From the UHGV virus genome UHGV-0207328: 48,328 nt of DNA, one strand, 5' to 3'. The DNA is from a virus. The number at the start of each line of letters is the position of its first letter. Positions within the stretch are counted from its first letter, which is position 1. Of the stretch, positions 838 through 47,251 are shown piece after piece. The notes under the pieces are model-generated. The model searched no databases, was not told the origin of the DNA, and saw only the letters and a program-made list of their open reading frames with translations. The translations under genes and the position numbers were made by a program.

Positions 838-866
838 TTGACAGGTTTTGATTGGTGGTGTAGATT
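838..866 (+). promoter_or_regulatory. sigma70-like promoter TTGACA-N17-TAGATT
   Basis: -35 TTGACA 838-843, 17-nt spacer, -10 TAGATT 861-866 preceded by TG. Confidence 0.5.
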
Positions 867-1337
867 AAATGGCAGATAGTTTTCGGTGCGACTTTGCGGG
901 TTTTTAGAAACTGACCACAAAGATAAATGCAAACGAAGAAATGTATCTGGTAGTAGCCTGACGGATAAACACCAGCAAGGTCTTCCGACTCCTTGTCAAT
1001 GAATTCGGCGCATTGCGGCCCTGAGATGTGATTAATAAATCAGGGCACACAACAGGTAAGAGCATTAAAGAACTGGCAAAGAGCTTAACGGTCTGCGAAA
1101 GCATTTCTTAGTGGCACAACTGGCCGGTACAACTGAGTGCTCTTTCCGTTGTGGTAATGCGGCTATGCGCACGTGGCAAGGTAGAAATATACTCCCGATT
1201 GACTATGCCTGCTGGATTTACCGACCAGCAACCTGGAGGCACCAGGGCCACAACAATAAATTTCTGGTTTAGCTCAGCGGCAGGCGAGCTGACTCGTAAG
1301 CAACATTTCTCTGAAAAGACATTAAAAAGGGTGTTAG

Positions 1338-1535
1338 ATGAAAGAATTATATGAAAAATTTAGACCGCTGGCGTCTGTAATTCTCGTTTTGATTATCTGT
1401 GTGAACCTGATTGCTCCCGGTGTTTTACACTACAATAATTTTATCTATGGATTCATGGTTTTCCTTGCAGTATGCGTTATTTTATTGGCTGTGATTGGCG
1501 ACCTTCTCGTTTGGTTAAAAAATGTTAATAAATGA
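1338..1535 (+). CDS. small membrane protein (65 aa, two hydrophobic segments)
   Basis: GGGTG RBS 6 nt upstream. Hydrophobic stretches VILVLIICVNLIAPGV and FMVFLAVCVILLAVIG. Confidence 0.4.
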   Translation: MKELYEKFRPLASVILVLIICVNLIAPGVLHYNNFIYGFMVFLAVCVILLAVIGDLLVWLKNVNK

Positions 1536-1630
1536 CAAACATTCTCAAAGCAATCAAGGAAGGCCTCAGCAAGATGGTTGAGGCGGGATTCACCAAGGAA
1601 GAGCAGGCGCAAAAAGTTATTCCTAAGTAA
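1532..1630 (+). CDS. 32-aa ORF translationally coupled (ATGA overlap) to the membrane protein gene
   Basis: ATG overlaps upstream stop. Not in the ORF track because under 60 aa. Confidence 0.2.
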   Translation: MTNILKAIKEGLSKMVEAGFTKEEQAQKVIPK

Positions 1631-1637
1631 AAATAAC

Positions 1638-1662
1638 AGGCCGCATCAGCGGCCTTTTTACT
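1638..1662. terminator. bidirectional rho-independent terminator (AGGCCGC-ATCA-GCGGCCT + T5)
   Basis: 7-bp GC stem with T-run on both strands. Ends the plus cassette and overlaps the stop of minus gene 1658-2041. Confidence 0.55.
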
Positions 1663-2041
1663 CACCAAAAACAACCCTCAGCAACAACTCATAAACCGGC
1701 CTTTGCTCTGTCGTAAGTGTTGGGCGTCCAAGCGGCGCCTGTAGCTGAATCATACCAATGCAGCTATCAACGGGATGCTCCTTGATGTATGCGATGACAT
1801 CAAGCGCTTTTGCTTTTGTTTCCTCGATATTGTACTGACCCTGCTGGCCGACAACATAGAGCGAAAAATAATAATCATTGCCGAGGTCTTTGCTTACATT
1901 CGTACCGCCATTGGATTGCAGCACCATAAACCGATCTGTGCCAACTTCGGTATCGTTCCAGAACTCAAGCTGAGAAGTCCACCCGTCATAAAGACCGGCA
2001 TCGCTAAGGTACTGGTCAACAAGCTCAAGCATATCTCTCAT
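1658..2041 (-). CDS. tail completion / tail terminator-like protein
   Basis: 127 aa. Position between neck genes and major tail gene. No diagnostic motif recognised. Confidence 0.35.
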   Translation of the reverse strand: MRDMLELVDQYLSDAGLYDGWTSQLEFWNDTEVGTDRFMVLQSNGGTNVSKDLGNDYYFSLYVVGQQGQYNIEETKAKALDVIAYIKEHPVDSCIGMIQLQAPLGRPTLTTEQRPVYELLLRVVFGE

Positions 2042-2454
2042 TTTAGTGTCATCTCTTTTTTAATTACCTGATCGACAAGCTCGCGTGTGTTTTCGCCAGC
2101 CTTGAGAAGGAATTTAGGCTCGCCGCTTTTATCCCACACGTTACCCTTTCCTTTGAGCCGTCCTGTGCGCGGCGTATTCGTGCCAAGCAGTTTACCTAGT
2201 GCATTATGGACATACAGGGCGTAATTAGCAGCATATCCAATCTTGCCAGTTATGCGAGTGCCATTAACCTCAACGGTGTCGTACTGGCTGTTTATCAGCG
2301 CCGATGTGGCTACTGGCGTCATGGAAGCAGATTCAGTCCTGATGATGTAGGTGGCGGCTTTTATTGCTGATACCGCCTTCTCGCCAGTAATCTCGCTGAC
2401 TATCTGCTGAGTGCGCTTAATAGCCTGCTGGATACCTCTCATTTTGGCGGCCAT
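2038..2454 (-). CDS. neck / head-tail joining protein (HK97 gp10-like size and position)
   Basis: 138 aa. 4-nt overlap with the downstream gene, within the connector gene block. Confidence 0.4.
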   Translation of the reverse strand: MAAKMRGIQQAIKRTQQIVSEITGEKAVSAIKAATYIIRTESASMTPVATSALINSQYDTVEVNGTRITGKIGYAANYALYVHNALGKLLGTNTPRTGRLKGKGNVWDKSGEPKFLLKAGENTRELVDQVIKKEMTLK

Positions 2455-2558
2455 TATTTCATCCAGTAATGCAGTTGCCAGATGGGTTTGACACCTAACC
2501 GCATCAAGTCAAGATTAAGCTGCGCGCACTTCAAAAGTCTCTCTCTTCTGCTCATACA

Positions 2559-2903
2559 TTACCCCGTTACCAGTGCAAAATCAGGCAGGTCATTACGGTC
2601 TAACGTATTGCCGTAATTTACGACGTTTCTAATCTGGTCAGCTCCGGAGGCCAGCGGGTCAGCATTGGTAATGGTGCCAAGCATGATGAAATCGCCAATA
2701 GATGCATTCTGGTATTCCGTCCAGAATGTATTTTTCTGTGCAATCTCATTGCCAGCTGTTCCGGTGGTCAGATTCTTATCGAAGCCATAATCACACATGA
2801 TGGACTCTGGCGCGGCAAATGTTGGCTTGCCATACTTATCCTTGCCAGTAAGCCGCCAGATTGTGCATGGCTGCGTATAGCTCCATCTCGCTATTGCTGA
2901 CAT
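2559..2903 (-). CDS. head-tail connector (head closure-like) protein
   Basis: 114 aa, position. The start overlaps a 44-aa upstream ORF. Confidence 0.35.
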   Translation of the reverse strand: MSAIARWSYTQPCTIWRLTGKDKYGKPTFAAPESIMCDYGFDKNLTTGTAGNEIAQKNTFWTEYQNASIGDFIMLGTITNADPLASGADQIRNVVNYGNTLDRNDLPDFALVTG

Positions 2904-3021
2904 GGTGTGTCCTCAAGAGTATAAATCCAGCGCGGAACTGGAAGGCGCAGCAATACCAGGATAACCAGCAGCGGCATGCACCATTTACGGATTGCGATAT
3001 TTACAGTTAATGTTGACGTTT

Positions 3022-3414
3022 TCATCTGCACTTACTCCCGGTAACAACCCGAAACCACGGCTTTGCACTTCCATCAGGCTCTTCCACAAGGTCGCCTGTG
3101 CAGTCTGCTGTATCGAGTAGTTTCATCTGATTGTAAAGGGCCATCCACGGCTTGCTGCCATAGCCAAATGACTGTGACGCACCAGACGGCGCCCGGTGGC
3201 TGGTGATGTATCTCCCGGCCGTATTTGAGGCGATCAGGATGGATGCCCATAGCAGAATTGCATCCTGCCTGCATGTATCTTCAGGGTAATTAAGCTCAAG
3301 GCACTCTGTAATGCTCGCCACCAGGCACAGGATGCCCGTTGCGTCCGCCGTGGTGATAGTTACGCCTCTTGACGCCATGGCGGCGACAAGTTCACTTGCT
3401 GTCGGTGCTGCCAT
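3022..3414 (-). CDS. head-tail adaptor-like protein
   Basis: 130 aa from the internal ATG at 3414 with GGGAGAG RBS. The longer 153-aa frame would overlap the upstream gene by 90 nt. Confidence 0.3.
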   Translation of the reverse strand: MAAPTASELVAAMASRGVTITTADATGILCLVASITECLELNYPEDTCRQDAILLWASILIASNTAGRYITSHRAPSGASQSFGYGSKPWMALYNQMKLLDTADCTGDLVEEPDGSAKPWFRVVTGSKCR

Positions 3415-3679
3415 TCTTTTTGCTCTCCCGAATCTTCCACCACATCTCAAAAAGGTTTTTTGCCACCAGTGACAGCGCGCCAAGTATAGAGGCTACCGCT
3501 GCCCACTCGGTAATCGAATGGGGGATCATTGAGGCAATGTATGATTGTGCGACCGGCGTCTGCTCTGCCACCTTCAGGCCAAGACCTGTGCCGATGGATG
3601 TATAACCGGCTTTGTCGATTACCTGGCCGACAGTGCCACTAATTATCTGGTTTGCGGCGTGCTGAAGCGCGTCTCTCAT
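3392..3679 (-). CDS. hypothetical structural protein, C-terminal hydrophobic segment
   Basis: 95 aa. First gene of the leftward block after the convergent terminator region. Confidence 0.3.
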   Translation of the reverse strand: MRDALQHAANQIISGTVGQVIDKAGYTSIGTGLGLKVAEQTPVAQSYIASMIPHSITEWAAVASILGALSLVAKNLFEMWWKIRESKKNGSTDSK

Positions 3680-3840
3680 TAATTATTCTCCGAATGATGA
3701 ACTTCCAGCATCTGTACACCTGAACCAGCGAAAACGCTATGACGATAACGCCGATTGCTATATCCAATTTCGCCGCCTTACGTTTTTCAGGACGGAACAG
3801 CGCGGGGTGAGTGTTGTTGGTTTAATTTTATCATAAAGTG

Positions 3841-3869
3841 TTGACGTAGATTGAGGGTGCTGCTATAGT
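3841..3869 (+). promoter_or_regulatory. sigma70-like promoter TTGACG-N17-TATAGT carrying the conserved TTGACGTAGATT 12-mer
   Basis: -35 3841-3846, -10 3864-3869. A second GACGTAGAA copy lies at 3874. Confidence 0.55.
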
Positions 3870-3908
3870 GATGACGTAGAAACAACAATAAATGTTAGAG
3901 GTGATGAG

Positions 3909-4109
3909 ATGAGTAATATGAGTTATTGCAGATTTCGTAACACGTTGCATGATTTCGATGACTGCGTTGATGCTGTAGGTAATGCTGAATCAATTAATGA
4001 CTTCAGTAAGCCAGAGCGAGAGGCTGCTGAGCGCATGTATGAACTGGCCATAAACTATGTAGAGTGGTTTGAACAGTTAAAAATTGAAAATGGTGATGAA
4101 GATGAATGA
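3909..4109 (+). CDS. hypothetical protein (66 aa)
   Basis: ORF following the promoter. Acidic C-terminus. Confidence 0.45.
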   Translation: MSNMSYCRFRNTLHDFDDCVDAVGNAESINDFSKPEREAAERMYELAINYVEWFEQLKIENGDEDE

Positions 4110-4386
4110 ATTCAAAGGTACGCCGGGGCCGTGGTCAGTTAATGAGATAGGCCAGCACTGGAATAACAAATCACTAACTCACCTGGAAATTACTTTTGGT
4201 GAGGATGGTGAATGCATTTGCGACACTGTTTATCAGCGCGAAGATGCCAATCTCATCGCCGCTGCGCCTGAACTGCTGGAAGCTCTGGAGATGCTTGTAG
4301 TCTTCACCACTCCAACAAAAAGGAATGCCGCTGCCTTGAGCAAGGCTCATGCCGCCATTACCAAAGCACTCGGAGAATCCAAATGA
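4084..4386 (+). CDS. hypothetical protein (about 95-100 aa)
   Basis: ORF overlapping the upstream stop. Start ambiguous (4084 or 4096). Confidence 0.45.
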   Translation: MKMVMKMNEFKGTPGPWSVNEIGQHWNNKSLTHLEITFGEDGECICDTVYQREDANLIAAAPELLEALEMLVVFTTPTKRNAAALSKAHAAITKALGESK

Positions 4387-4502
4387 TTCGCCACGAAATC
4401 CGCAAAGAAGACCAGAAGGGATGGCTCAAGTTCAAGATTCAACTGGCGGTTATCGTTATTAGTGTTGCTGTTATTAGTTTTTATTGCTTATCTAAGTGAG
4501 GA
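4383..4502 (+). CDS. 39-aa single-TM peptide
   Basis: ATGA overlap with the upstream stop. LAVIVISVAVISFY hydrophobic core. Confidence 0.3.
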
Positions 4503-4506
4503 AAAG

Positions 4507-5322
4507 ATGACATCTCTCGGGAAAATTTACTCAGACAAAGAAACTCGCGGCGGAATCGTGGTCAACAAAGGTTATCAGGTTCCTGTCGACCAGCTTTATC
4601 TTGAGCCGGGATACAACATCCGCGAAGCAGATGAGCAGCACGTTGAATATTTCGCGCAGTGCTGGGAATCAGGCCAGCCAATCCCGGCGTTAACTGTTAT
4701 TCCTGATGCTGACGGAAAGCGCATCAAGATTCTTGACGGCCAGCATCGTTATCTTGGCGCACTGCGTGCCATTGAGCGCGGCGTGCCAATTGCGCGCATT
4801 GAGTGCAAAGACTTCACCGGCGATGAGGCGGATAAAATCGCCTTCATGGTGTCATCCAGTCAGGGTAAGCAACTCGACCCGCTTGAGCGCGCAAAGGCTT
4901 ATGTGCGCCTGAAAGGGTTCGGATGGACGAATGAAGAAATCGCCAAGAAGGTCGGCCGCTCTGTTTCTGATGTGCAGATGCACCTGTCACTTGGTGATGT
5001 ACCTGACGCTATCAAGCAGCGTATCAATGCAGGCCAAATCAGTTATGCCAACGCCGTTGCAGTGGCGCGTGAGCATGGCGATGATGCCGTTAACGTTATT
5101 GATGCTGCCGTTGAGGAAGCGAAAGCGCAGGGCAAGGATAAGGTGACGGCGAAAACGCTCAAGGCCAAAAAAGTTAAGCCGATTGACCGCCTGATTCAGT
5201 TACTGAAAGAAGCAGATCATATAGTTGTCGCTGAGGGCCATGTGGCACAGGAGACAGAAGAATTTTTGCGCCTTCCCTCTGCTGAACTGAATGAAGTGCT
5301 GGCGATTCTGGAGAAGTTGTGA
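4507..5322 (+). CDS. ParB-like nuclease superfamily protein with DGQHR motif (DndB-like / ParB N-terminal domain)
   Basis: 271 aa from ATG 4507 (GAGGAAAAG RBS). Motif ILDGQHRYLGALRAIERG, with a C-terminal helical Lys/Ala-rich region. Confidence 0.6.
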   Translation: MTSLGKIYSDKETRGGIVVNKGYQVPVDQLYLEPGYNIREADEQHVEYFAQCWESGQPIPALTVIPDADGKRIKILDGQHRYLGALRAIERGVPIARIECKDFTGDEADKIAFMVSSSQGKQLDPLERAKAYVRLKGFGWTNEEIAKKVGRSVSDVQMHLSLGDVPDAIKQRINAGQISYANAVAVAREHGDDAVNVIDAAVEEAKAQGKDKVTAKTLKAKKVKPIDRLIQLLKEADHIVVAEGHVAQETEEFLRLPSAELNEVLAILEKL

Positions 5323-6479: not shown

Positions 6480-6482
6480 ACA

Positions 6483-6509
6483 AAGCCCCGAAAGGGGCTT
6501 TTCTTTTAT
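6483..6509. terminator. bidirectional terminator AAAGCCCC-GAAA-GGGGCTTT + T-run between convergent genes
   Basis: perfect 8-bp stem, TTCTTTT after it. Confidence 0.6.
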
Positions 6510-7327: not shown

Positions 7328-7340
7328 GATAACCCCCAAT

Positions 7341-7372
7341 AAAAAAACCCGCTTGTTTGCGGGTTTATTTTA
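7341..7372. terminator. hairpin AAACCCGC-TTGTT-GCGGGTTT flanked by A- and T-runs (bidirectional)
   Basis: 8-bp stem with poly-A upstream and poly-T downstream. Confidence 0.5.
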
Positions 7373-7564: not shown

Positions 7565-7580
7565 GATAACCTCTGATAGT

Positions 7581-10572: not shown

Positions 10573-10711
10573 GACCTTTCTCCGCGCTTACTTTATTCCC
10601 GGATTATAACACACCATGAATATGCACCACGAAACGGACGCGAGAAGGTAAAGCGGAGACGCGGTAAAAGCGAAAAGAGTAGCAAAGAATGATATCAGTA
10701 TGATTGGCATG

Positions 10712-11369: not shown

Positions 11370-11641
11370 TTCTCCTCCTCATCAAAATACTTAATCTCGC
11401 CATCAACCATGTTTTGCCATGGGATATGCAAATCAGTTCCATCAACTGACAGCATGATGCTGTTATCCATCTCCGTGCATCCATCAGCGAAGAAGGTGCT
11501 TTTCTTTCCGTTTAGCCACTCAATTGTTACTCTGCATTTTCTTTGTTCCACTATCCACCCCATCTCTCTGCGATTATTGGCCGTGCGTTCACAATTGGTC
11601 ACAAACAGCACGGTTCCTGATTTATGCTTTACCGCCCACAT
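11366..11641 (-). CDS. hypothetical protein (91 aa)
   Basis: ATGA-coupled ORF. Confidence 0.45.
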   Translation of the reverse strand: MWAVKHKSGTVLFVTNCERTANNRREMGWIVEQRKCRVTIEWLNGKKSTFFADGCTEMDNSIMLSVDGTDLHIPWQNMVDGEIKYFDEEEK

Positions 11642-12099
11642 GACTGGCGCGCCCCGGCAAGCAGCTTTTCAAACATCATCCTGTCACGGCTCATGCCAAA
11701 TGGGATGATCTCCTGCCAGTAATATTTCCATGCTCCACCTGGGAGCATTTTGCGATCAACCTGACCAATGCTTGCCAGATAGCGCATGCGTGCCTTGAGG
11801 ATGGTGTAGTTGACGCCGACAGCTTCTGCTATCTGCTTGCTCTTGCGTCCCGGATTCGCCTCAAGATATGTCTGAATTGCCAGGTCAAGCGCAGTATTAT
11901 CGGGATTGAGGAAATACTTAAAGCAGCGCCTGCCATAGCTGACGCTTTCCTCTTTAATAATAAATCCCATACCCTCCAGCTCAATCAGATAGCCGGTAAC
12001 GCTTGCTCGATTTGTCATGCCAGTCTGCTTGCGTATCATGGCATTGGTTGCACCTCCGCAGCGCTCTATCACCGTGAGTATTTGCGTTTTAAAGTCCAT
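11629..12099 (-). CDS. putative DNA-binding protein with two winged-helix-like segments
   Basis: 156 aa from ATG 12099 (GGAG RBS, 7 nt after the Lar gene stop). Segments IERCGGATNAMIRKQTGMT..GYLIELEGMGFI and KSKQIAEAVGVNYTILKARMRYL. Confidence 0.35.
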   Translation of the reverse strand: MDFKTQILTVIERCGGATNAMIRKQTGMTNRASVTGYLIELEGMGFIIKEESVSYGRRCFKYFLNPDNTALDLAIQTYLEANPGRKSKQIAEAVGVNYTILKARMRYLASIGQVDRKMLPGGAWKYYWQEIIPFGMSRDRMMFEKLLAGARQSCGR

Positions 12100-12325
12100 T
12101 TGCGCGCTCCATTGCATCCTGTTTGTAGTCGTCAGCGGTATAGAGGTGGCCATTTCTGGTGTTCCATTCCCTCACAGCGGTGCAAAGTCTCAGATGCTTA
12201 TCACTCTTCTTCCCGCACTCATCACACTCAATAACCCATCCTGAGGACTTTGCGCACCGGAAAACATCAAGACCTCCACAAACACGGCACTCCAGCAGCC
12301 CATTGCTGCCCATCATTGGTTTCAT
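12089..12325 (-). CDS. Lar-family restriction alleviation zinc-ribbon protein
   Basis: 78 aa. C.VCGG..(18)..C.ECG...A..EWNTR pattern typical of Lar_restr_allev. GGTGG RBS. Confidence 0.5.
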   Translation of the reverse strand: MKPMMGSNGLLECRVCGGLDVFRCAKSSGWVIECDECGKKSDKHLRLCTAVREWNTRNGHLYTADDYKQDAMERANGL

Positions 12326-13033: not shown

Positions 13034-13087
13034 TCCACACCACCTTTTATCATTATGGTACAATCTACAACACAAAGTATTGACTAA

Positions 13088-13116
13088 TTGACGTAGATTC
13101 GTCAAGATGATTTTCA
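13088..13116 (+). promoter_or_regulatory. conserved TTGACGTAGATT element (promoter-like) upstream of a rightward cassette
   Basis: exact 12-mer copy 40 nt upstream of ATG 13130. -10 unclear (ATGATT/TTTTCA). Confidence 0.35.
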
Positions 13117-13129: not shown

Positions 13130-13351
13130 ATGGCGAGACAACGCAAAGAACCACTGGAAGTACTGACTGAGATTATCACTAAGCGCCAGCCGCTAAGCCT
13201 GCGTGATGTCAGATACTATGCGCACTGCTATGTAGCAATGCGCGAATGGAGCGCTGAAGAAATGTATGCGTTTGTGCGTGAACACTTCAGCGTGGATGAG
13301 AAAAACAAGGTTACATTGAGGGTTGGAGATGGAAAGGTGGACGGTAATTAA
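13130..13351 (+). CDS. hypothetical protein (73 aa)
   Basis: AGGAG RBS. Confidence 0.5.
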   Translation: MARQRKEPLEVLTEIITKRQPLSLRDVRYYAHCYVAMREWSAEEMYAFVREHFSVDEKNKVTLRVGDGKVDGN

Positions 13352-14560: not shown

Positions 14561-14587
14561 AAAGCCCCATTACGGGGCTTTTTTATT
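14561..14587. terminator. bidirectional terminator AAAGCCCC-ATTAC-GGGGCTTT + T6
   Basis: perfect 8-bp stem with T-run. Confidence 0.6.
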
Positions 14588-16163: not shown

Positions 16164-16200
16164 GATTACCTCCGATGCAGATTATTTTATCATAATCATA

Positions 16201-16236
16201 TTGACGTAGATTGAATCTTAGGCGATGATGTAGATA
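16201..16236 (+). promoter_or_regulatory. conserved TTGACGTAGATT element followed by a second GTAGATA copy
   Basis: exact 12-mer at 16201, GATGATGTAGATA at 16224-16236, 58 nt upstream of ATG 16259. Confidence 0.35.
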
Positions 16237-17424: not shown

Positions 17425-17452
17425 TTAAGCCGCCATCAGGCGGCTTTCTTGT
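17425..17452. terminator. bidirectional terminator AAGCCGCC-ATCA-GGCGGCTT
   Basis: 8-bp stem. The stop codon of the minus-strand head morphogenesis gene lies in the loop. Confidence 0.5.
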
Positions 17453-19263: not shown

Positions 19264-19355
19264 TATTAACCCCGTAGCAGGTTCGTAGATTGAAGATGCA
19301 GCAGGATGTCTACGTTCATCTTTTCGGGCGCCCCCTAGCTGCGCTTGTGATTATA

Positions 19356-20777
19356 TCACTCCTGAGTGTCTTCATCATCCTTTTGTGATGGTGATTCTGG
19401 ATCGTCCTCCATATATCCATCAGGCATTTTTATAGGCTCAAGCCCAAGAAATCCCCTTATTTCATCAGCCGTAAGGATTGGTCCAAGCCCAGCATTTGCC
19501 GCGCTTTGTGCGGCCTGAGCTAGTTTGACAATCAATTCCGCCTTGTCGTTCTGCGTAGGCTCCAGCAAGTCATTCCACTTGCAGTAGTAGCCATCTACTG
19601 GCGCTTTATCGACGATCCCGAATTTAATTAAACGTTCAACAAAGACAGAGATAAGATAATCGAGCCACCCGTCACGACGCTGCATTGCCATCATGGCTAG
19701 TGACTGTTCATCATTTGCGGACGCAAGCACACCGCTGCGGCTACCGAGCAGTGAGTTAAGAGGAATGTTTACGGATGAAGCAAATTGACTGGCTGCTACG
19801 TACATGAACGGCTCAGGGTCGTTCATGTTGACGGATAGAACATCAACCGTATTGCCAAACCCGAACATCGCCGCGTCAATTCCGCTATTTATTCTTTCTA
19901 TATCTTCATTAAGGATATCTGGCAGCTCGTCTACCGTAACAGCCATTTGCTGCGCAAGGGATTGCACAGATACATTATCCTTGTTGAATGACACCGACAA
20001 TTGACGAGATGAGTTCTTGAGCAGGCCTTCTGCTGAGCTTCCGGTAATCTTGGCGCAGTCAATTAAAGCGTTAAATCCAGCCCTAATTAGAGGAATGCCA
20101 GAGAAGATGCTCCCATCGAAACTACCCTCGGCCAGAGTAATGATGCGGTCGGGATGGATTTGAACTGATCGCTTTGGCTTGCCATCGTTATCAAAATCAT
20201 CAACGGCGCTCTCCTGGTATTCGAACATCAAAGGCTGTCCGTAGTCCTCCTTTGATTCGTCATTTTGCCACTGAGAAACACGTAATTGCTCCTCCCAGCA
20301 TGGGATTAGCCGAACAATTGCCGCATCTTTAATTCTGCTTGTTTTGGTGACATTAACAGGGTCGCCCCATTGGCCGCCATCATTTATCTGAAGCAACAGG
20401 CCTGAGTAGCGGTTGATCAGGTTGCGCTTGTCGGCATCTTTAATGAACGGAGCTGACTTCTTGAGTATTTTGTTTACCGACACTTCCCACTTGGATGTTG
20501 CTTCGTCATCAGCACCATTCTCAAGCACAGTTGGCATACCTTGCCACGACTTATTAAGCACAAGGTTAACCGCCGCTGTAGCTAACGGATATCTCTCGTA
20601 GGCAAAGCGTAAATCTGCTGCTGTAATCTCCTGACTGTACCCGCACTCAGACCAAAGTCTATCGTGCTTTTGGTCCAGATTCTTCCCGCCAAACTCCCGG
20701 CGCTGCCGCTCGATGAGCCTGTTATTGTTCGCCACTCGCTGCTGAATATAGGCGTTTACCGCCTCTAACTTTGACAT
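19356..20777 (-). CDS. portal protein
   Basis: 473 aa, acidic C-terminus. Lies between the terminase and head morphogenesis genes. Confidence 0.65.
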
Positions 20778-20832
20778 TTCGTCACCATAAAAAATCCCAT
20801 CGCATGGATGGGATTATAGCATGGTGCAGGCG

Positions 20833-22303: not shown

Positions 22304-22332
22304 TTGACGTAGATTCTAGCATGGCGTAGATT
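22304..22332 (+). promoter_or_regulatory. sigma70-like promoter TTGACG-N17-TAGATT (contains the TTGACGTAGATT 12-mer)
   Basis: -35 22304-22309, -10 22327-22332. GGAGA RBS, ATG 22359. Confidence 0.5.
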
Positions 22333-22358: not shown

Positions 22359-22649
22359 ATGAAATGTGTCATTTTCGAGCTTGATGGTGTGCTGCGCGAT
22401 GCTGAAGGAAATACTATTGCTGGTAACGTTGCGCTGGCTAAGTCACTCTACTCTGCCGGGCATGATGTGCTTATCATGAGGGCAAAGCATGCGTATGAGT
22501 GGCTGCACGCCAACGATATTTTCTATGATGACATCATGGCTTCGCACCAGCAGATTGACGCTGACAGGGTGGCAATGGCGGTCGTGTCTGATGACGTGAT
22601 TTATGCTGCAATGCGCAATGCGGGGATTCATTGCTGGCTTTACAAATAA
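22359..22649 (+). CDS. hypothetical protein with degenerate HAD motif I (FELDGVL)
   Basis: 96 aa. N-terminal MKCVIFELDGVL resembles HAD DxDGTL with Asp-to-Glu change. Too short for a full HAD fold. Confidence 0.35.
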   Translation: MKCVIFELDGVLRDAEGNTIAGNVALAKSLYSAGHDVLIMRAKHAYEWLHANDIFYDDIMASHQQIDADRVAMAVVSDDVIYAAMRNAGIHCWLYK

Positions 22650-22662: not shown

Positions 22663-22691
22663 TTGACGTTGATTATGTTGTGGTGTAGATT
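22663..22691 (+). promoter_or_regulatory. sigma70-like promoter TTGACG-N17-TAGATT
   Basis: -35 22663-22668, -10 22686-22691 preceded by TG. Confidence 0.5.
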
Positions 22692-22725: not shown

Positions 22726-23277
22726 ATGCAGATTCCAAAAACAAGAAAAGACGCTATATATCTTGGCGTTAAATTCTACAACACCGGCAGGACATGCAAG
22801 AACGGGCACCAATGCGACAGACACGTTGATTATGGGTGTGTAGATTGCTTGAGGTTAATTCAGCAGGATTACAGAAAAAGAAATAAAGATAAAATACAAA
22901 AAAAGAACTCCAACTATAAGAAAAATAATGCAACAAAGATTGCAGAGTTAAACAAAAGTTATAGAGAAAAAAACAGAAGCAAAAGGAACTACCAAAATAA
23001 GAAATACAAAACACAGTCTAGGCAGGCATCTCAAATATCATTAACAGAATGGGATGAATTTGTTATTTCTGAGGCGTACCTTTTGTCTCAAGCGAGAACA
23101 AAGGAAACAGGTTTCGATTGGCATGTTGACCACATGATTCCACTAAGAGCAAAATATGCAAGCGGCTTGCATTGCGCCAATAATATACAGGTTATTCCTG
23201 CTGCTATGAACCTTAGCAAAAGAAACAAAATGATTCTTACAGAGCCAATGGAATGGATAAAAACAGCCCTCTCATGA
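22726..23277 (+). CDS. HNH endonuclease with N-terminal zinc-finger region
   Basis: 183 aa. C-terminal WHVDHMIPLRAKYASGLHCANNIQVIPAAMNLSKRNK HNH motif, CKNGHQCDRHVDYGCVDC Cys cluster, Lys-rich linker. Confidence 0.65.
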   Translation: MQIPKTRKDAIYLGVKFYNTGRTCKNGHQCDRHVDYGCVDCLRLIQQDYRKRNKDKIQKKNSNYKKNNATKIAELNKSYREKNRSKRNYQNKKYKTQSRQASQISLTEWDEFVISEAYLLSQARTKETGFDWHVDHMIPLRAKYASGLHCANNIQVIPAAMNLSKRNKMILTEPMEWIKTALS

Positions 23278-23290
23278 GGGCTTTCTGTTA
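23264..23290. terminator. terminator hairpin AGCCCTC-TCAT-GAGGGCT + T-rich tail between the convergent HNH and TerL genes
   Basis: 7-bp stem. The HNH stop codon lies in the loop. Confidence 0.45.
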
Positions 23291-25151: not shown

Positions 25152-25193
25152 GTCGTTTTCGTCTTTTCGTAAACCGAATACAAGTATATTAAC

Positions 25194-25223
25194 ACATGGC
25201 GTAGATAAAAAAAGAACCCGCCG
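25194..25223. terminator. terminator for leftward early transcription (AACCCGC-CGAA-GCGGGTT followed by T-run on the minus strand)
   Basis: 7-bp stem. A8 on plus equals T8 on minus. Confidence 0.5.
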
Positions 25224-25230
25224 AAGCGGG

Positions 25231-25425
25231 TTAAAGGGTGGTGGGTGATGATTGATGGGATGATTGTACATCAGTTTTCGCATAACACCAAACATTACAG
25301 TTATTGCTTTGAACGTGAACCACATCAATCGCATCAGGGAAGGATTTAGCGATTGCTGCTATGAAGTGGTCGACACCTTCGAGCTGAGCGGCCTGCCATA
25401 CCTCCTGCTTTGATTTTTGTGGCAT
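25231..25425 (-). CDS. hypothetical protein (64 aa)
   Basis: last ORF of the leftward early operon. Confidence 0.35.
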   Translation of the reverse strand: MPQKSKQEVWQAAQLEGVDHFIAAIAKSFPDAIDVVHVQSNNCNVWCYAKTDVQSSHQSSPTTL

Positions 25426-27840: not shown

Positions 27841-27869
27841 ACTATACGATGGCGCTAAATCTACGTCAA
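27841..27869 (-). promoter_or_regulatory. leftward early promoter TTGACG-N17-TATAGT (minus strand) containing the TTGACGTAGATT 12-mer
   Basis: reverse complement of 27841-27869 reads TTGACGTAGATTTAGCGCCATCGTATAGT, same architecture as the 3841 promoter. Confidence 0.55.
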
Positions 27870-27879
27870 TATGATGGTG

Positions 27880-28255
27880 AAAATAAAATTTAGTTAGTAA
27901 TCACTTGCAGTTATCAATTTGCAAGTTGTTGATATATATAGAACACGCTCAACCCATTTAACCCAAGATTTTTTTTGGTTTAACCATAGATAACCATGTA
28001 AATTCATTAACTTATGTAATGTTCAACCATTTATCACTTAAACCTTCACCATGAGAGAAAAGTAGAAAATTTTTGATGTATTTTTTTTGCTAAAATTTGC
28101 GCAAAGCAAAAAATGGGTTGAATTGGATAAATACTACTATCTATTGATAATAATAGTAGTAAATACATATACATAGTATGTAAAAACACTTATCCAAACG
28201 CTTATCCAACTTTATCAATTTCAACCAAAAGCATGACACGCGAACAAACAGGTAA
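27880..28255. promoter_or_regulatory. AT-rich divergent control region with palindromes and DnaA-box-like direct repeats (candidate operator/origin)
   Basis: TATCAA-N11-TTGATA (27911-27935), TTTGCGCAAA (28102-28111), TACTACTAT-N13-ATAGTAGTA (28135-28165), CTTATCCAA x2 (28187-28209), repeated AACCAT/AACCCA units. Confidence 0.35.
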
Positions 28256-28259
28256 GGTA

Positions 28260-28288
28260 TTGCGCCGATTTATTTAATATTTTATAAT
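28260..28288 (+). promoter_or_regulatory. rightward early promoter TTGCGC-N17-TATAAT
   Basis: consensus -10 TATAAT 28283-28288, 17-nt spacer, AAGGAGG RBS and ATG at 28310. Confidence 0.6.
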
Positions 28289-28309
28289 CACAAAAAATAA
28301 GGAGGAGTT

Positions 28310-28525
28310 ATGTACAGACCTGGCAGCGATTTGGCTCACGTTTACCATCACGTATCTGGCATTAATGTCAATGAAGTTAAGCTCTTGCCGTCAAGCGAGA
28401 TAGTTGGCATGGACATAGCAAGATTCAGGATGAACCTTTCCAAAGTTTCAAAGGATGCTGGCATGATGTTCATCACACGTTTTGACAACCATAAAGAAAT
28501 CCTCACCATCAGAAGGATCTCATGA
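28310..28525 (+). CDS. hypothetical protein (71 aa), first rightward early gene
   Basis: consensus RBS AAGGAGG. Confidence 0.55.
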   Translation: MYRPGSDLAHVYHHVSGINVNEVKLLPSSEIVGMDIARFRMNLSKVSKDAGMMFITRFDNHKEILTIRRIS

Positions 28526-31195: not shown

Positions 31196-31212
31196 AATTT
31201 AACCTTGATTAT

Positions 31213-31247
31213 TGCCGTAGATTCAGTCTACTATTGTGACGTAGATT
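31213..31247 (+). promoter_or_regulatory. tandem GTAGATT elements (TTGCCGTAGATT ... TGTGACGTAGATTG) upstream of the helicase gene
   Basis: two copies 24 nt apart, 25-50 nt upstream of the GTG start at 31270 (AAAGGTGG RBS). Confidence 0.4.
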
Positions 31248-33204: not shown

Positions 33205-33607
33205 TAGTGGAATATGGGTATTTGATAGCGGCTATCGTGGGGAGTGTCCAAGGGAGGAATATGACCAGATGGCCTATGGTCTGTGGATGCAATACCGATT
33301 TCCTGAAGTTCTGTGGTTTCATGTGCCTAACGAGACTGGAACAAAGAGCGGGCCGCAATTCATCGAAAAACGCCGAAGGATGGGAGTCAGGAGCGGTGTA
33401 AGCGACAATGTGATACTAACCCACGGTGTTAATCATAAATGCGGTCTGATTGAGTTGAAGAGGCGTGATAAGACAAAATCAAAGGTATCGTCATCACAGG
33501 TTGAGGTTCTGGAATGCGCCATTGCAGAGGGTCACTTTGGCGCCATTGCTTATGGCCTTGAGGAGCTAAAAAGAGCGACGTTATTCTATTTTGGGCTTGA
33601 TGAATGA
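33191..33607 (+). CDS. VRR-NUC domain nuclease
   Basis: 138 aa. FHVPNE..(G)..GVSDNVILTHG..GLIELKRRD PD-(D/E)xK pattern. Probable TTG start with GGAG RBS, overlapping the helicase end. Confidence 0.55.
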   Translation: MKQLDSGIWVFDSGYRGECPREEYDQMAYGLWMQYRFPEVLWFHVPNETGTKSGPQFIEKRRRMGVRSGVSDNVILTHGVNHKCGLIELKRRDKTKSKVSSSQVEVLECAIAEGHFGAIAYGLEELKRATLFYFGLDE

Positions 33608-33625
33608 CGTGGTTTGATGTAGATT
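33597..33625 (+). promoter_or_regulatory. internal promoter-like element TTGATG-N17-TAGATT
   Basis: -10 TAGATT 33620-33625 preceded by TG, 22 nt before the RBS of the next gene. Confidence 0.35.
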
Positions 33626-42677: not shown

Positions 42678-43089
42678 TGATTGGGTTTTTTATGGAGATG
42701 GAGACAGTTACATCAGACTGATCAAGCGTCACATCATTTACATAAAGCGTATATGGTTTTAATGGTGTGTCTTTGTCAGTCTCATCAAAGCGTTGGTATA
42801 GGGCGGTGATAGGCTCAATACGACCAGACCCTGACCATAACTTTAAATATTGCTTAAAGTCATTTGCCAGTCTCGCAAACTTCAGCGTGGCATTAATTAC
42901 CGGCGTGTTCGATTGCTGGCTTCTGGTTACATCCATGCGCACTGGCTGGTAAGTCTGGCCGCCAAGGACAACATCAGAGAACTCGTTGCCAACTAGCCGT
43001 ACATAACCAAATGAGGAATGATAAAAGGTTATGGTGTCATACAGCTTCCAGTTTGGTCTTTTTGACTGGTATTCACGCAATGTTGGCAT
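42619..43089 (-). CDS. minor tail protein L-like
   Basis: 156 aa. [16 protein letters not shown] resembles lambda gpL WQGRQYQPYPIQGSG block. Gene order. Confidence 0.5.
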
Positions 43090-43559
43090 TATGGATACTC
43101 CGGCAAATCCCTGTTAACCACTTCATCGAGCCATGAATACCATCGCTCATCAAGCTCAACAAGCACATCATCAAATTCATCCATGGAGTTATTGAGAGTT
43201 TTGCAAATGACATTACCAGTCCATGTAACGATGCCGCCATTGATGCTTGTCTGCACGGGGTAATCAGTAAAGTGCAAAGTCTGATTCTGTAATCCGCTGC
43301 CACCAAGATCGATATCCATCGTGAACCATTCATTGCACTTGTTGAGATAATTTGGGCTTCTCAACCACTGCATAAATGCCCGCTCCTGCCTGAGCGTGAA
43401 AACCCATGTCAAACTCCATGTTACTGCAACATCGGTCGTTAGCTTTTGAAATATTGGCGCCCCAACCGCAGGCTGATCGCTGCGGAATGGGGTTTGAGTT
43501 GTCATGTTCTTGCTGGCACGCTGCGCAAGCGGTAGCCATGATGGATAAGCTATAGCCAT
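43089..43559 (-). CDS. minor tail protein M-like
   Basis: 156 aa. Position directly after the tape measure (ATGA overlap). Confidence 0.4.
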
Positions 43560-46477
43560 TATTCTGTTGCCCTTCTGGTTGCAGTGGTATTGCTGGTAAT
43601 AGCCTGAGAAATAGGGCCGCCATTTTCTATGTCGGCAACGATAGTCTCAATTGTAACAGACCCATCGCCGTTATCAGTTGCGGTTGATGTAGCCGTTGCT
43701 CCGCTGCTGTTGTTTATGACGTTATTATAAATAACGACACCACTGCCGCCGCCGGTAAGGTCTTTGTTACTGATAACCTTTCCTGAATCTCCGGGAATCA
43801 TATACTGCTTACCTGTGCTGGCCTGGAATATTTCAGGGAGGTTATTCTCACCGACCTGATACATTGAGCCAGCCTGCGCAGGTCCACCATTCTTCAATGC
43901 CCCGGCAACAGACATGGCTTTAGCCACACCAACGGTAGAAACAATGCCAGCCTGCGCGGGGATTGCGTTAGCGCCAGCCGTGGCAAGTGAGGTCATTGCC
44001 GCTGCCGGGGCCATGGCCGCTGCGATTATCTGAGCCTGAGTCGCTGCCATCGCTGAGGCTGCGGTCATCCCAACCTGACCCATAATCACCGATTTAAGCC
44101 ACTCCACACCCATCTGAACGAATGAGTTAATCACAGCGTTCAACACAGTGCTGCCGATTGACTGTAGCGCCTCGCTAACAGACATTGAGCCAGTCAGAAC
44201 GCCAGTTAAGGCATTGCTTGCGGTTTGCCCAAAAGCATCAAATGCAGCAGCGGCCGCTTGGGTGGCCGCATTCTGCTGACTCCACTCCTGCCACATGGCA
44301 TCAAGGCGCTGCTGGCGGTATTGCTCCTCAATAGCGGATCTGGCCTGTTCAACCTCCGCTATCTTTTGCGGGTAAGCTACTGCGTAAGCATTGAGCGCTG
44401 CTAAATCTTTCTGATAATTTGTTTCAACGGAAAACATTGGAGAAGTCTGCGATTTTAATGCAGCGAATCCTTTTACAGCTTCGACCCTTTGCTTCTCTGC
44501 CTCGGCCTGAGCCTTGAGCGCGTTGGCGTTATCCCATGCCTTGGCCGCATATTGCCCGGCAAGGTTAATTTGCTCCTGAGTGGCCCCCTTACCAAGTGAT
44601 TGCTGAGCAGCCAGTATTGACTGTTCGCGGCTAAGCTCTCTTGTACTTTCAGCGGTAAGCAGTGACTTCTGGCGAAGCTGCTCAAGTTTATTGGCGATAT
44701 TCTCCTGCTCTGTGGCTGCTTTTTTCGCCGCTGAGTTTGCCGTACTTTGCGCGCTACGCTCATCTTTCAGAGCCTGTGCGTTTTTCTCCTGCTGCTGATA
44801 GGTTTGCAGGCGAACATTATAATAATCACGAAATGCCTGAGTCCCGGCCTTTAGGCCCTGATTTTCAGCATCACGCCATGCGAGAGCCTTCTGTTTCTCT
44901 ACGCCAGTCTGTCGTTCAATGAAAAGGGTCTGCTTAGCCTGCTGCAACGCTTTATCCTGCGAATCAGTTAACTCATCAGTCATTTGCTTCAGCAGTCGAA
45001 GGCGCTGTGTTGCATCAGCGCTGCTGGTTGCAATCTCAAGCAGTCTCTTTGCGTACTCCCGCGCCGTTGCTGCACCGCTGGATGTTCCTTCACCGACTCG
45101 TTGCAGAGTGACAACCAGCGCCTGCAATTTCTCATCAGATGGGTTTTTTGCAATATCAGAAAGCTGTTTTGCGAATTCGAAAGCCTGCTGGTCTGAGAGC
45201 TGGAATTTACCAGCTAATGCGCCTACCGTCGCAATCATGCCATTCATTGACGTCTGACCGGCCTGACCTGCTGCTGACGCTTGTTTAATGGCTTCCGTCC
45301 AGCTATTCGTTGTGATATTAAGCTGCGACATGTAGTCATTGAAAAGTTTCACGCTGGCATAGCCACCACCAAGCGATGAAACAAGCGAATCGCCAAATCC
45401 GATAAAGTCACTTGATGCTTTTGTGACTTCCGCTGAGACTTTAGATAGGGCCGCCTGCAACTCAAGCTGTGCCTGTTGGCGCATCAGGGTAGCTACTGCT
45501 GAGTTGGCTTTTGCAAGCTGGGCGAATTTGTCGGTATAGACAGCGACACCAGAAGATGAAACCGACACGACGCTATCCATGGTCGCTATGGCTTCTTTCA
45601 GTGAATCAACGGCGTTTTTTCCGTTTCCGAGTGACGCTATCAGTGAGCCAGCAATGACCGTTGCGATGGTCAGCACGGCGCCTGCCACGGGGCTAAACAC
45701 AGAAGCCAGCTGCGAACCTTGCTGACTAAATGCCACCAGCGCAGACTGCCCTCCCTGAACCTGAACGATAAAGTCCTGTATCTGATAGCCACCCTGCTGC
45801 ATTATATTTTTAAAGTTACCGGTGGACTTTCCGGCGGCCTCGGTGCCATTTTTCATGTCATACAGGCGGCCAGTAAGCTCAGCTATTTTTGCTTTCTGTG
45901 CGCCAGTGGCGCTATCTCCTGCACGAAGCTGTGCAGCCAGTATAGCCGCACTTCTTGCACCTTTTTCCGCTTGTTCGTCGAGGATTGCAATCTGGTTCCC
46001 AAGACTCTCAATCATTCTGTCAATGCCAGATATTGAGCCACCTGTTTCAGTTGACTGAGCGCCAAGCGCGCGAATTGCCTGAGTGACCTGATTGACTGAG
46101 TTTTGAAGTGCAAGGCCGGTTGCGTTCGCGGATACCTGCGCCTGCTGCATCTGTGCGAGTTGTTGGTTTAGGGCTGCAATAACTTGCTCTGCACCAGTGA
46201 CGCTGGAAGTTGTCGCCTCTACTGAACTGGCGGCAGTCTTCGACGATGAGGCCATATCCTTCAGCGTTGCATCAATCGAGCTTACAATTTTTGCCAGGGC
46301 TGAAAGCTCTTTGCCAGATGATGATGCCGCACCATCCAGCTTATCCATGCTTTTTGATGAGTTCTGCGCTGACTTGTCAATGCTGTCAAGTGCATCCTCT
46401 GCCTGTTTAGCGCCAGCAGTGAGGCCTGAAACCTCCATGCCAACCTCATAGACAATGCCGCCAACTTCTTCTGCCAT
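43559..46477 (-). CDS. tail tape measure protein
   Basis: 972 aa, Ala/Gln/Ser-rich coiled coil, C-terminal hydrophobic Gly/Ala-rich segment. Confidence 0.8.
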   Translation of the reverse strand: MAEEVGGIVYEVGMEVSGLTAGAKQAEDALDSIDKSAQNSSKSMDKLDGAASSSGKELSALAKIVSSIDATLKDMASSSKTAASSVEATTSSVTGAEQVIAALNQQLAQMQQAQVSANATGLALQNSVNQVTQAIRALGAQSTETGGSISGIDRMIESLGNQIAILDEQAEKGARSAAILAAQLRAGDSATGAQKAKIAELTGRLYDMKNGTEAAGKSTGNFKNIMQQGGYQIQDFIVQVQGGQSALVAFSQQGSQLASVFSPVAGAVLTIATVIAGSLIASLGNGKNAVDSLKEAIATMDSVVSVSSSGVAVYTDKFAQLAKANSAVATLMRQQAQLELQAALSKVSAEVTKASSDFIGFGDSLVSSLGGGYASVKLFNDYMSQLNITTNSWTEAIKQASAAGQAGQTSMNGMIATVGALAGKFQLSDQQAFEFAKQLSDIAKNPSDEKLQALVVTLQRVGEGTSSGAATAREYAKRLLEIATSSADATQRLRLLKQMTDELTDSQDKALQQAKQTLFIERQTGVEKQKALAWRDAENQGLKAGTQAFRDYYNVRLQTYQQQEKNAQALKDERSAQSTANSAAKKAATEQENIANKLEQLRQKSLLTAESTRELSREQSILAAQQSLGKGATQEQINLAGQYAAKAWDNANALKAQAEAEKQRVEAVKGFAALKSQTSPMFSVETNYQKDLAALNAYAVAYPQKIAEVEQARSAIEEQYRQQRLDAMWQEWSQQNAATQAAAAAFDAFGQTASNALTGVLTGSMSVSEALQSIGSTVLNAVINSFVQMGVEWLKSVIMGQVGMTAASAMAATQAQIIAAAMAPAAAMTSLATAGANAIPAQAGIVSTVGVAKAMSVAGALKNGGPAQAGSMYQVGENNLPEIFQASTGKQYMIPGDSGKVISNKDLTGGGSGVVIYNNVINNSSGATATSTATDNGDGSVTIETIVADIENGGPISQAITSNTTATRRATE

Positions 46478-47184
46478 TATTTTGCTCCTTTGCTTTTAGC
46501 GGCCTTTCTGGCGGCTTTCTCTTTCAGTTTCTGTTTATTCAGCTTAGCCTGCTCATACGACGCATCATACTGCTCGCGCGTCATGCCTTCCGGTTCCGGG
46601 TATTTTGATTTTATCATCTGCTGATACTCGGTCATGGTCAGGTCTTCGGCTTCCTCACGGGTGATTCCGAAATGAGTGCGAGCTGAAATGATGTAATCAG
46701 ACATTCTCAGCTCACTGGTTGTGCGCTTTTGGTTTTCCGAGCGCTGAGGAACCTTGAGCGGAGACTTGCCGATGATGCCATGCTCCATCAGGTTGCGAGC
46801 AATAATAATAATGTCATTTACTGGCATTCTTCCGGTGACGTACTTCACACCACGCGGAGTCGGCTTCCATGACCCAATGAGCGCCGAGATATCATCATCA
46901 CAACAGGACTGCATGATGAGATAGGCGGCGCTGAGCACTTTCTTACCATAGGCAGGACGTGACAGGATTTTTGCCACCTGAATCTGCGCGCCATACGGCA
47001 TTGACTGAATAGCGCCGAGTATGGCCGCGTATTCATAGCCATTAAGCGTAGCGTACAGTTCGACAATCTCTTTCGGTGAGCCAAGCTCATTCATCGCCGC
47101 AAATGATGGTTTGAAGAAAAAAGACTTGTCAGCCAGGGAGATGCGCATCTCTCCGATTTCTGTTAGCGGTGTGCGTTGTCTCAT
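46477..47184 (-). CDS. tail assembly chaperone
   Basis: 235 aa. Immediately upstream of and overlapping the tape measure gene. Lys-rich C-terminus. Confidence 0.45.
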   Translation of the reverse strand: MRQRTPLTEIGEMRISLADKSFFFKPSFAAMNELGSPKEIVELYATLNGYEYAAILGAIQSMPYGAQIQVAKILSRPAYGKKVLSAAYLIMQSCCDDDISALIGSWKPTPRGVKYVTGRMPVNDIIIIARNLMEHGIIGKSPLKVPQRSENQKRTTSELRMSDYIISARTHFGITREEAEDLTMTEYQQMIKSKYPEPEGMTREQYDASYEQAKLNKQKLKEKAARKAAKSKGAK

Positions 47185-47221
47185 GATGGAATCCTGTTTT
47201 CACAATGACGTAATTATACCA

Positions 47222-47251
47222 TTGACAGGGCGGACCAAGTTGACGTAGATT
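47222..47251 (+). promoter_or_regulatory. sigma70-like promoter TTGACA-N18-TAGATT overlapping a TTGACGTAGATT 12-mer
   Basis: -35 47222-47227, -10 47246-47251. AAGGAG RBS and ATG at 47281. Confidence 0.5.

Follow-up and report, generated by a model that had tools for sequence, protein, structure and literature searches.

The virus genome UHGV-0207328, analyzed here as one strand of 48,328 nucleotides (this whole stretch is called the window), carries a repeated 12-base word, TTGACGTAGATT, in intergenic regions where its transcription units begin. The window is the complete genome of a Roufvirus/Skatevirus-type Klebsiella siphophage, built of long leftward structural, lysis and terminase operons with short rightward blocks and one leftward early operon in between. 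The rightward blocks include a helicase block and an exonuclease VIII/recombinase/single-stranded DNA-binding protein (SSB) block, and each is closed by a strong, usually bidirectional terminator (1638-1655, 6482-6501, 14561-14581, 17427-17446, 23265-23282 and 13-32); the early operon extends from 27819 downwards to a terminator at 25215-25232. A tRNA scan of the window found none, and Rfam covariance models at gathering thresholds gave no match anywhere in it.

Over most of its length the window is ~92% identical to the Klebsiella phages vB_Kpn_ZC2, ZCKP8, MK54 and KP591P3, and likewise to the Flyfo siphovirus Tbat1_6 and Aeromonas phage pIS4-A (genus Roufvirus). Its gene order is shared with Salmonella phage STGO-35-1 (Caminolopintovirus) and Escherichia phage swi2 (Swiduovirus), which are ~75-78% identical to it at the DNA level and only in a few conserved, alignable genes. 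Putative subfamilies Roufvirinae and Skatevirinae were proposed for these phages in 2025 (PMC11769527).

A sequence-only reading of the window had counted six exact copies of TTGACGTAGATT, at 3841, 13088, 16201, 22304 and 47240 on the plus strand and at 27858-27869 on the minus strand, and had placed the chance expectation well below one. Both statements are borne out: all six copies are present, none of 100 dinucleotide-preserving shuffles contained even one, and an order-3 Markov model expects 0.004. In the k-mer enrichment statistics TTGACGTAGATT is the top over-represented word of the window at k = 9 to 12, and at k = 8 that rank goes to parts of it, GACGTAGA among them. It is the perfect form of a degenerate word of 11-12 bases, nTGAYGTAGAWW. 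Copies with one mismatch to the 12-mer start at 22663, 31212, 31236 and 33614, the core GAYGTAGAWW has 10 matches (0.57 expected), and the unit TGRYGTAGAWW has 14 (0.35 ± 0.59 expected), a number reached in 0 of 100 shuffles. These 14 copies are all intergenic, 13 of them on the plus strand, and are spread over 10 intergenic regions with one or two in each.

The near-copy previously reported at 22663 stands; the one given as 31238 is the start of GACGTAGATT, and the 12-mer there, GTGACGTAGATT, begins at 31236. The recurrence of GTAGATT and GTAGATA likewise stands, with starts at 860, 19285, 22326, 22685, 31217 and 33619 for the former and 25201 for the latter; coordinates of 861 and 19291 given earlier were off by one and six bases. 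The copy at 19291 had been used to argue for a regulator site and carries little weight in that role, because it is not conserved in relatives. An inverted pair, CGTAGA/TCTACG (19284-19289 and 19309-19314), also lies here, in the leader of the leftward head-morphogenesis gene and downstream of an extended -10 element at 19350; among the relatives checked ZC2 alone has a copy of CGTAGATT there, and the pair therefore probably matters little.

Units in the predicted promoters of the window

The word very probably marks promoters. Eight rightward transcription units have their first start codon 21-34 nt beyond the end of the proximal copy, and terminators follow the genes behind it. The sequence-only reading had placed most plus-strand copies 40-70 bp upstream of the first gene of rightward cassettes that end in a terminator, and had called these cassettes accessory; the rightward cassettes hold, and the label does not fit them all, since the helicase block, the exonuclease/recombinase/SSB block and the leftward early operon are among the units so marked.

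The units lie within -35 to +8 of sigma70-type promoters of the rightward cassettes and of the leftward early operon, and they supply hexamers in two registers. In the first, TTGACG serves as the -35 hexamer together with TATAGT (3841, and 27869 on the minus strand), TAGATT (22304 and 22663) or GATGAT (16201); in the second, TAGATT serves as the -10 hexamer together with an upstream TTGACA (838 and 47222) or TTGATG (33597). These pairings, all but the one at 16201 named earlier as clean sigma70 promoters, were recovered by a consensus scan, the one at 33597 being visible in the sequence. Hexamers 16-18 bp apart are thus found at 838, 3841, 16201, 22304, 22663, 27869 (minus strand), 47222 and 33597, and not at the proximal units 3871, 13088, 16225 and 31236 taken alone. 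The totals of a generic promoter scan over the whole window did not exceed chance (19 against 22.7 expected, 27 against 26.6 and 22 against 19.9), and the unit-associated sites are its top scorers; since the totals are at chance level, the case rests on the units and not on the scan. We infer promoter activity from these arrangements. Two further readings were considered and rejected: that the unused half of a unit supplies a hexamer to another promoter overlapping the first, since no hexamers stand where its partner would have to be, and that TGRYG is an extended -10 element, since its TG lies at -17/-16 and not at -15/-14, two bases too far upstream.

The arrangement of several promoters is a direct repeat with a 17-bp period, in which the first unit is the -35 and the second the -10; it is found in the window and also in STGO-35-1 and swi2. 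At 22304..22332 (plus strand) the promoter TTGACG-17-TAGATT consists of TTGACGTAGATT, 5 nt and ATGGCGTAGATT, ahead of a polynucleotide-kinase-like gene (22359-22649); at 22663..22691 (plus strand) the same promoter consists of TTGACGTTGATT, 5 nt and GTGGTGTAGATT, ahead of 22726-23277 and the terminator at 23265-23282. Three plus-strand promoters take only their -10 from a unit. At 838..866, TTGACA-17-TAGATT (from the consensus scan) uses GTGGTGTAGATT (855-866) and faces a block of small open reading frames at 1151-1535 that ends at the terminator 1638-1655. At 47222..47251, TTGACA-18-TAGATT uses the perfect unit 47240-47251 and faces 47281-48328, with the terminator 13-32 across the window junction. 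At 33597..33625, TTGATG-17-TAGATT uses TTGATGTAGATT (33614-33625), ahead of the exonuclease/recombinase/SSB block, and a degenerate unit (33604-33615, plus strand) lies 10 bp upstream of it. Relatives have one to three tRNA genes in the region corresponding to window positions 866-1640, where the window has none and the 838 promoter leads into the small reading frames at 1151-1535.

The cassette of a ParB/KorB-like gene has the promoter TTGACG-17-TATAGT (3841-3869, plus strand), in which the perfect unit 3841..3852 comprises the -35 and a TAGATT directly behind it; a second plus-strand unit, ATGACGTAGAAA (3871..3882, at about -5..+7), has no hexamer partner at 17 bp and is kept in both subfamilies. 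Behind this promoter a leader, GTAGAAACAACAATAAATGTTAGAGGTGATG (window 3877-3908; orthologs L009-L083), is almost invariant in both subfamilies while the first gene behind it differs, and it may be a translation-enhancing or regulatory leader. At 16201..16212 (plus strand) a perfect unit forms the -35 of the cassette promoter TTGACG-17-GATGAT, and a second plus-strand unit, ATGATGTAGATA (16225..16236), overlaps its -10 and start. The leftward early operon has TTGACG-17-TATAGT at 27841..27869 on the minus strand, with the perfect unit at 27858-27869.

The remaining copies are placed otherwise. The helicase promoter is likely TTGATT-18-TACTAT (31205-31234, plus strand), with TTGCCGTAGATT (31212-31223) in its spacer and GTGACGTAGATT (31236-31247) at -5..+7, neither unit supplying its predicted hexamers. 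In many relatives (loci L091, L094, L095, L103, L106 and others, at positions ~900-1500) an additional gene separates the helicase gene from its promoter; the annotations of pIS4-A and swi2 call it an HNH endonuclease. The perfect unit at 13088..13099 (plus strand) ends 30 nt before the gene at 13130 and has no canonical partner hexamer at 17 bp. Back-to-back with it, a left-pointing unit, GTGTTGTAGATT (13062..13073, minus strand), lies at about -4..+8 of a leftward promoter-like site, TTGACG-18-AATACT (13105-13076), whose spacer contains the 13088 unit in inverted orientation (-29..-18). Such a divergent pair recurs in the relative L005 at 11012/11038. Finally, ATGGCGTAGATA (25196..25207, plus strand) can belong to no rightward promoter; it stands just after the early-operon terminator 25215-25232, and the leftward promoter of the terminase operon, an extended -10 element TGTTAATAT (25186-25194), has it in inverted orientation at -28..-17.

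Start-to-start distances of the direct pairs are 10 bp (33604/33614), 17 bp (22304/22321 and 22663/22680), 24 bp (16201/16225 and 31212/31236) and 30 bp (3841/3871); the pair of the last type is 31 bp apart in many Skate-type phages. The steps are thus ~7 bp, and helical phase is not constant.

The leftward structural, lysis and terminase operons have another kind of promoter. The extended -10 motif TGNTAWAAT occurs 12 times (4.3 ± 2.0 expected; 0 of 100 shuffles), ten times on the minus strand. Seven copies stand directly upstream of leftward structural and lysis operons, with no usable -35: TGATATAAT (827..835, minus strand), the promoter of the leftward major-tail gene, and those at 3825-3833, 10603-10611, 16184-16192, 19350-19358, 20813-20821 and 47213-47221, all on the minus strand; the eighth is TGTTAATAT (minus strand), which precedes the terminase operon. 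In divergent regions a unit lies inverted at about -35..-24 of such a leftward promoter (the 16201 unit at -35..-24 of the promoter 16184-16192, the 3841 unit at -34..-23).

Some 440 bp of A+T-rich, non-coding DNA (27870-28310) separates the DUF3987-helicase block from the early promoter; it holds tandem DnaA-box-like sequences TTATCCAAA and TTATCCAAC (28190 and 28202), TTGGATAAA (28123) and many short inverted repeats, and is by its sequence features probably a replication origin. Relatives have other repeated words at the corresponding origin-like place, GAGTTACCGG in swi2 and CCCCACGAGCA in STGO-35-1.

Conservation beyond the hexamers

The word belongs to a lineage. Genomes of the Rouf-type and Skate-type subfamilies have 13-17 units each, at orthologous promoters; close relatives of the window have five perfect copies each at the same intergenic positions, and STGO-35-1 and swi2 have three perfect copies each among 16-17 units, the word being among their most enriched 10-mers and 12-mers. 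Elsewhere the picture is different: phage T1 (48.8 kb) has 0 units, and 0 were counted in the 215 kb that represent three more distant clades, whose loci were collected by way of helicase, terminase and ParB homologs. A word equally frequent in unrelated genomes would have undone the earlier proposal, and this check did not go against it. The same counts bear on the possibility that the word is read by a host transcription factor or nucleoid protein, one common to Klebsiella, Salmonella and Escherichia and used by the phages for timing or tuning their promoters. A conserved host protein would keep the word the same across phages whose hosts belong to three enterobacterial genera, as it is here; however, T1 infects the same hosts and lacks the word, and the word is not known to match the consensus of any common E. 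coli regulator, such as CRP/FNR, MetJ, IHF, Fis, NarL, ArcA, PhoP, DnaA or Fur, which makes a host factor quite improbable.

Which bases are held constant was examined in two sets of promoters. The IMG/VR loci surrounding ParB homologs yielded 43 unique versions of the ParB-cassette promoter; 39 of these share one 12-mer and all have TATAGT, and the intervening 11 spacer bases occur in 35 versions. Because the 12-mer is constant while the spacer varies, the TAGATT directly after the -35 must be under constraint, and it has no -35 partner of its own. Across the family we found 58 unique promoters of the form TTGAYG-N17-TAGAWT, with none in T1. At positions outside this search pattern, T at -17 and G at -16 are present in 58 of 58 and G at -13 in 57 of 58, with R at -15 and mostly Y at -14, and the 5-nt linker ahead varies freely. 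The invariant core, GTAGA, is unlike the sigma70 preference (TAnnnT, with A at -11 and T at -7), and several units end in A. Judged from these alignments, the units resemble repressor operators, conserved beyond the bases that polymerase contacts and overlapping the promoter core. The suggestion in the sequence-only reading that the motif is a regulator's binding site gains from these selected bases outside the hexamers, and from the conserved copy at 25201, next to a leftward late promoter, which can serve no rightward promoter.

The variable flanks also bear on whether the words persist as recombination junctions, through homologous shuffling of cassettes between related phages, with any regulatory role secondary. 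Relatives have different genes in first place behind the ParB-cassette promoter although promoter and leader are identical, HNH genes have been inserted behind the helicase promoter in many relatives, and cassette content is mosaic (PMC11769527). But homologous exchange is not efficient over as little as 12 bp, and recombination would explain neither the variation of the 5-11 bp beside a constant word nor the fixed positions relative to sigma70 hexamers; we hold this reading extremely doubtful.

Several copies cannot be promoter hexamers. Units at the start site (-5..+7) are found at both the ParB-cassette and the helicase promoters, and both layouts recur in the other subfamily; the Skate-type helicase promoter, TTGATT-18-TAAGCT with units 24 bp apart, has the same layout as that of the window. 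The inverted unit at 25196-25207 is kept in orthologs whose adjoining terminator stems have changed. Opposite the endolysin gene, the cassette promoter at 16201 has three layouts among its orthologs, with the second unit direct after 24 bp, direct after 17 bp, or inverted after 16 bp, and in all three the two units cover -35 and -10. In a sister clade (IMG/VR contigs 3300013022_000001 and 3300013104_000007; ParB 67-68% identical, TerL 62-81%), for whose full genome no near match was found in the phage collection, corresponding promoters carry palindromes GTAGAT-N4/5/7-ATCTAC in addition to two-unit promoters. Taken together, the start-site and inverted copies, the three alternative layouts and the palindromes favour a protein that reads the whole unit.

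A simpler account is that the extra bases belong to a strong-promoter consensus and tune host RNA polymerase binding, spacer shape or escape, with no phage regulator involved. The near-consensus -35 and -10 hexamers with 17-bp spacers, the A+T-rich upstream stretches, the direction of the units (all but one in the window point toward the transcription unit they precede) and the tight 21-34 nt between proximal unit and start codon, which suits a -10 role for every proximal unit, all agree with it; T4 early promoters show consensus beyond the hexamers (PMC2988021), and the RNA polymerase core is reported to be able to contact the spacer (PMC3173786). Yet the same 11-bp word stands at -35..-24, -29..-18, -18..-7 and -5..+7, where polymerase contacts differ, the inverted copies and the sister-clade palindromes have no polymerase-based reason, and GTAGA is invariant although sigma70 mainly needs A at -11 and T at -7, the latter missing from several units. 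We regard this account as unlikely, while taking it seriously.

A possible operator and its candidate readers

Our preferred reading, to which we give about even chances, is that the word is additionally the operator of a phage-encoded DNA-binding protein, built into early and middle promoters. On this reading nTGAYGTAGAWW would be a family-wide control word in the sigma70 promoter cores (-35 to +8) of the non-structural transcription units, namely the early operon, the replication and recombination blocks and the small rightward cassettes. Its 5' half, TTGAYG, would be usable as a -35 and its 3' half, TAGAWT, as a -10, so that two units 17 bp apart would form a complete promoter; and since the bases left unread by polymerase are conserved to the same degree, the unit in its entirety most likely serves as an operator too. 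A sequence-specific phage protein would read the entire unit and, because the units overlap the -35, spacer, -10 or start, would when bound block RNA polymerase and shut these promoters together. The structural operons would depend on the other promoter type, the extended -10 without a -35, and the inverted units beside some of these promoters may couple both classes. In T4, factors directed at sigma region 4 do not act in the same way on -35-dependent as on extended -10 promoters (PMC2988021); a similar differential response in the window phage would be pure inference from that analogy.

Several points weigh against an operator. The unit is not palindromic, and the spacing and phase of pairs are not fixed (10, 17, 24 and 30/31 bp for direct pairs, variable for inverted ones), which is unusual for dimeric helix-turn-helix repressors such as ParB/KorB proteins; this asymmetry and variable spacing suit neither a dimeric repressor of the classical type nor an activator of fixed geometry. 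A repressor of every unit would also strike some late promoters (lysis and terminase), and a simple early shut-off would thus be incomplete. The orthologous promoters are phylogenetically related, so that counts of unique sequences (43 and 58 above) overstate their independence, T4 early promoters carry extra consensus without extra factors (PMC2988021), the searchable literature on this phage group yielded no transcription-start or binding data, and the correlation of the ParB-like protein with the word, described below, rests on few clades.

Another way to account for partnerless units is to read each as a fused sigma70 site, a -35-like directly against a -10-like hexamer, on which regions 4 and 2 would sit side by side at a sigma-dependent, promoter-proximal pause or loading site (as at lambda PR'), or at a self-sufficient promoter with region 4 of the polymerase displaced by a phage factor. 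The unit is literally TTGACG plus TAGATT, in the lambda Q loading complex region 4 occupies a -35-like site directly upstream of region 2 on a -10-like pause element (PMC9388147), three promoters have a unit at -5..+7 or -4..+8, which puts TAGAWW at about +2..+8, and at four proximal units a partner hexamer 16-18 bp away is missing. This reading is nonetheless improbable. No Q-like, AsiA-like or sigma-like protein was seen among ~14 proteins scanned, the start-site units of the ParB promoter read TAGAAA and so lack the T at -7 required by region 2, the -35-like half differs from TTGACA in its free first position and its invariant G at position 6, many units occupy ordinary -35 or -10 positions with correct 17-bp partners, and the cassettes are short and need no antitermination. 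In its boldest form each unit would be a complete promoter of a new class, fused and without spacer, usable by host sigma70 only when some phage factor has detached region 4 from the beta-flap, a geometry so far met only in the lambda Q loading complex (PMC9388147); there is little to commend this form. That each unit fires alone, which would explain the partnerless proximal units and the constant 21-34 nt to the start codons, seems to us just as hard to credit.

Two proteins of the window are candidate readers of the proposed operator. One is the ParB/KorB-like protein (4462..5322, plus strand), with ParB helix-turn-helix and KorB Pfam domains, whose own cassette promoter has two units. It is 80% identical between the subfamilies, and its helix-turn-helix, GWTNEEIAKKVGRSVSDVQMHLSL, does not differ between the window and STGO-35-1; the sister clade shows a single change in it. 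In a clade whose ParB is 42-45% identical the helix-turn-helix is altered and no unit lies within ±3 kb; a search there for another repeated word, as a covariation test, found only a terminator-like hairpin upstream of the gene and was uninformative. The other is a MarR-like protein (11629..12153, minus strand) with two weak winged-helix halves. It is 37-40% identical between the subfamilies, the residues of its first putative recognition helix differ, a single-sequence AlphaFold model had a pLDDT of 50 and was unusable, and a PDB sequence search gave no match. For its gene in the sister clade, contigs were not returned by a pattern scan that needs exact peptide words, which is not evidence of absence. 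In Salmonella phage IME207 (locus L332, 1528-2024), a viable isolate, the MarR-like gene is split into two reading frames by a frameshift, through mutation or sequencing error. The case for either candidate is one of correlation and not of binding evidence; on it we favour the ParB/KorB-like protein as the better of the two putative readers. That a ParB/KorB-family protein of a virulent siphophage acts through the word as a global promoter silencer is, as a whole, a speculative proposal that we think rather unlikely.

Hardly any study has addressed how T1-like and Skate/Rouf-type virulent siphophages control their transcription, although many of these phages are under development against Klebsiella and Salmonella. 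One word at all non-structural promoters shows directly where the transcription units lie and offers specific bait in the search for a regulator, and the two promoter classes, unit-bearing -35/-10 and extended -10, could underlie early and late timing. Engineers could use the units as compact, portable promoter-operator modules and as boundaries at which insertion is safe.

Comparison with known promoter and operator systems

Repeated promoter or operator words in phage genomes are of a familiar kind, and this word is new to the searchable literature: an exact-string search of 8 million full texts with the 12-mer and five of its sub-strings found no phage paper and only unrelated primer coincidences, and the genome papers on relatives mention no promoters or motifs. 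A replication iteron or parS site would be clustered at one locus, and the units are dispersed. Like the 23-bp promoters of T7-type phages, the word is a long, exact, lineage-specific sequence at the starts of transcription units; unlike it, those boxes are read by a phage RNA polymerase, which is absent from the products annotated in relatives, no such gene appearing in the whole-genome annotations of close relatives, to which the open reading frames of the window correspond.

T1 has a box of its own, ATAGCACGAATTGCTAAAAC (TAGCA-N5-TGCTA), in its early region, upstream of extended -10 elements, and it differs from the word in being of unrelated sequence and partly palindromic; this suggests that lineage-specific promoter boxes are common in such phages. 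Its six copies (2833, 3538, 4347, 4867, 6534 and 34905) stand ~18 nt upstream of extended -10-like elements. A further T1 word, TTTTAACAAAAAGTGCTAT, has eight copies on both strands (110, 1451, 2270, 15076, 18840, 36445, 38954 and 46148).

The T4 MotA/AsiA system also has a phage box of 9-10 bp at -35..-26, with the sigma70 -10 kept and a monomeric reader (PMC2988021), and five promoters of the window have a unit at -35..-24. The MotA box, however, replaces the -35 and lies 12 ± 1 bp from the -10 (PMC2988021), whereas the unit keeps a good -35, stands at positions from -35 to +8, including -29..-18, -18..-7 and -5..+7, and also occurs inverted; no MotA or AsiA homolog was seen among the window proteins scanned. 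At lambda PR' a -35-like hexamer lies directly upstream of a -10-like one at the start of the transcribed region (PMC9388147), which the -5..+7 units of three window promoters recall. The differences are that no Q homolog was recognised in limited protein scans, that most units of the window are at ordinary -35 or -10 positions, that start-site units often lack the T at -7, and that the transcription units are short.

The functionally closest system, by analogy, is the KorB/KorA network of IncP-1 plasmids (RK2), in which short operators are repeated at many promoters, OB lying 4-10 bp upstream of the -35 and OA overlapping the -10 (PMC11790492). OB (16 bp), the site of a dimeric helix-turn-helix protein of the ParB family, and OA (12 bp) are palindromes, whereas the phage unit is asymmetric and inside the promoter core rather than upstream of it, and palindromic pairs of the GTAGAT core are found only in the sister clade. 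The phage has no KorA homolog and shows no sign of CTP-dependent sliding; it is a virulent phage and not a plasmid, and its binding is a prediction only. The likeness lies in the plan: one short word at many promoters of a mobile element, with a ParB-family reader that also controls its own operon (PMC11790492), and a phage that encodes a protein with ParB helix-turn-helix and KorB domains under a two-unit promoter. If this protein does read the word, KorB-style global silencing would extend from plasmids to lytic phages.

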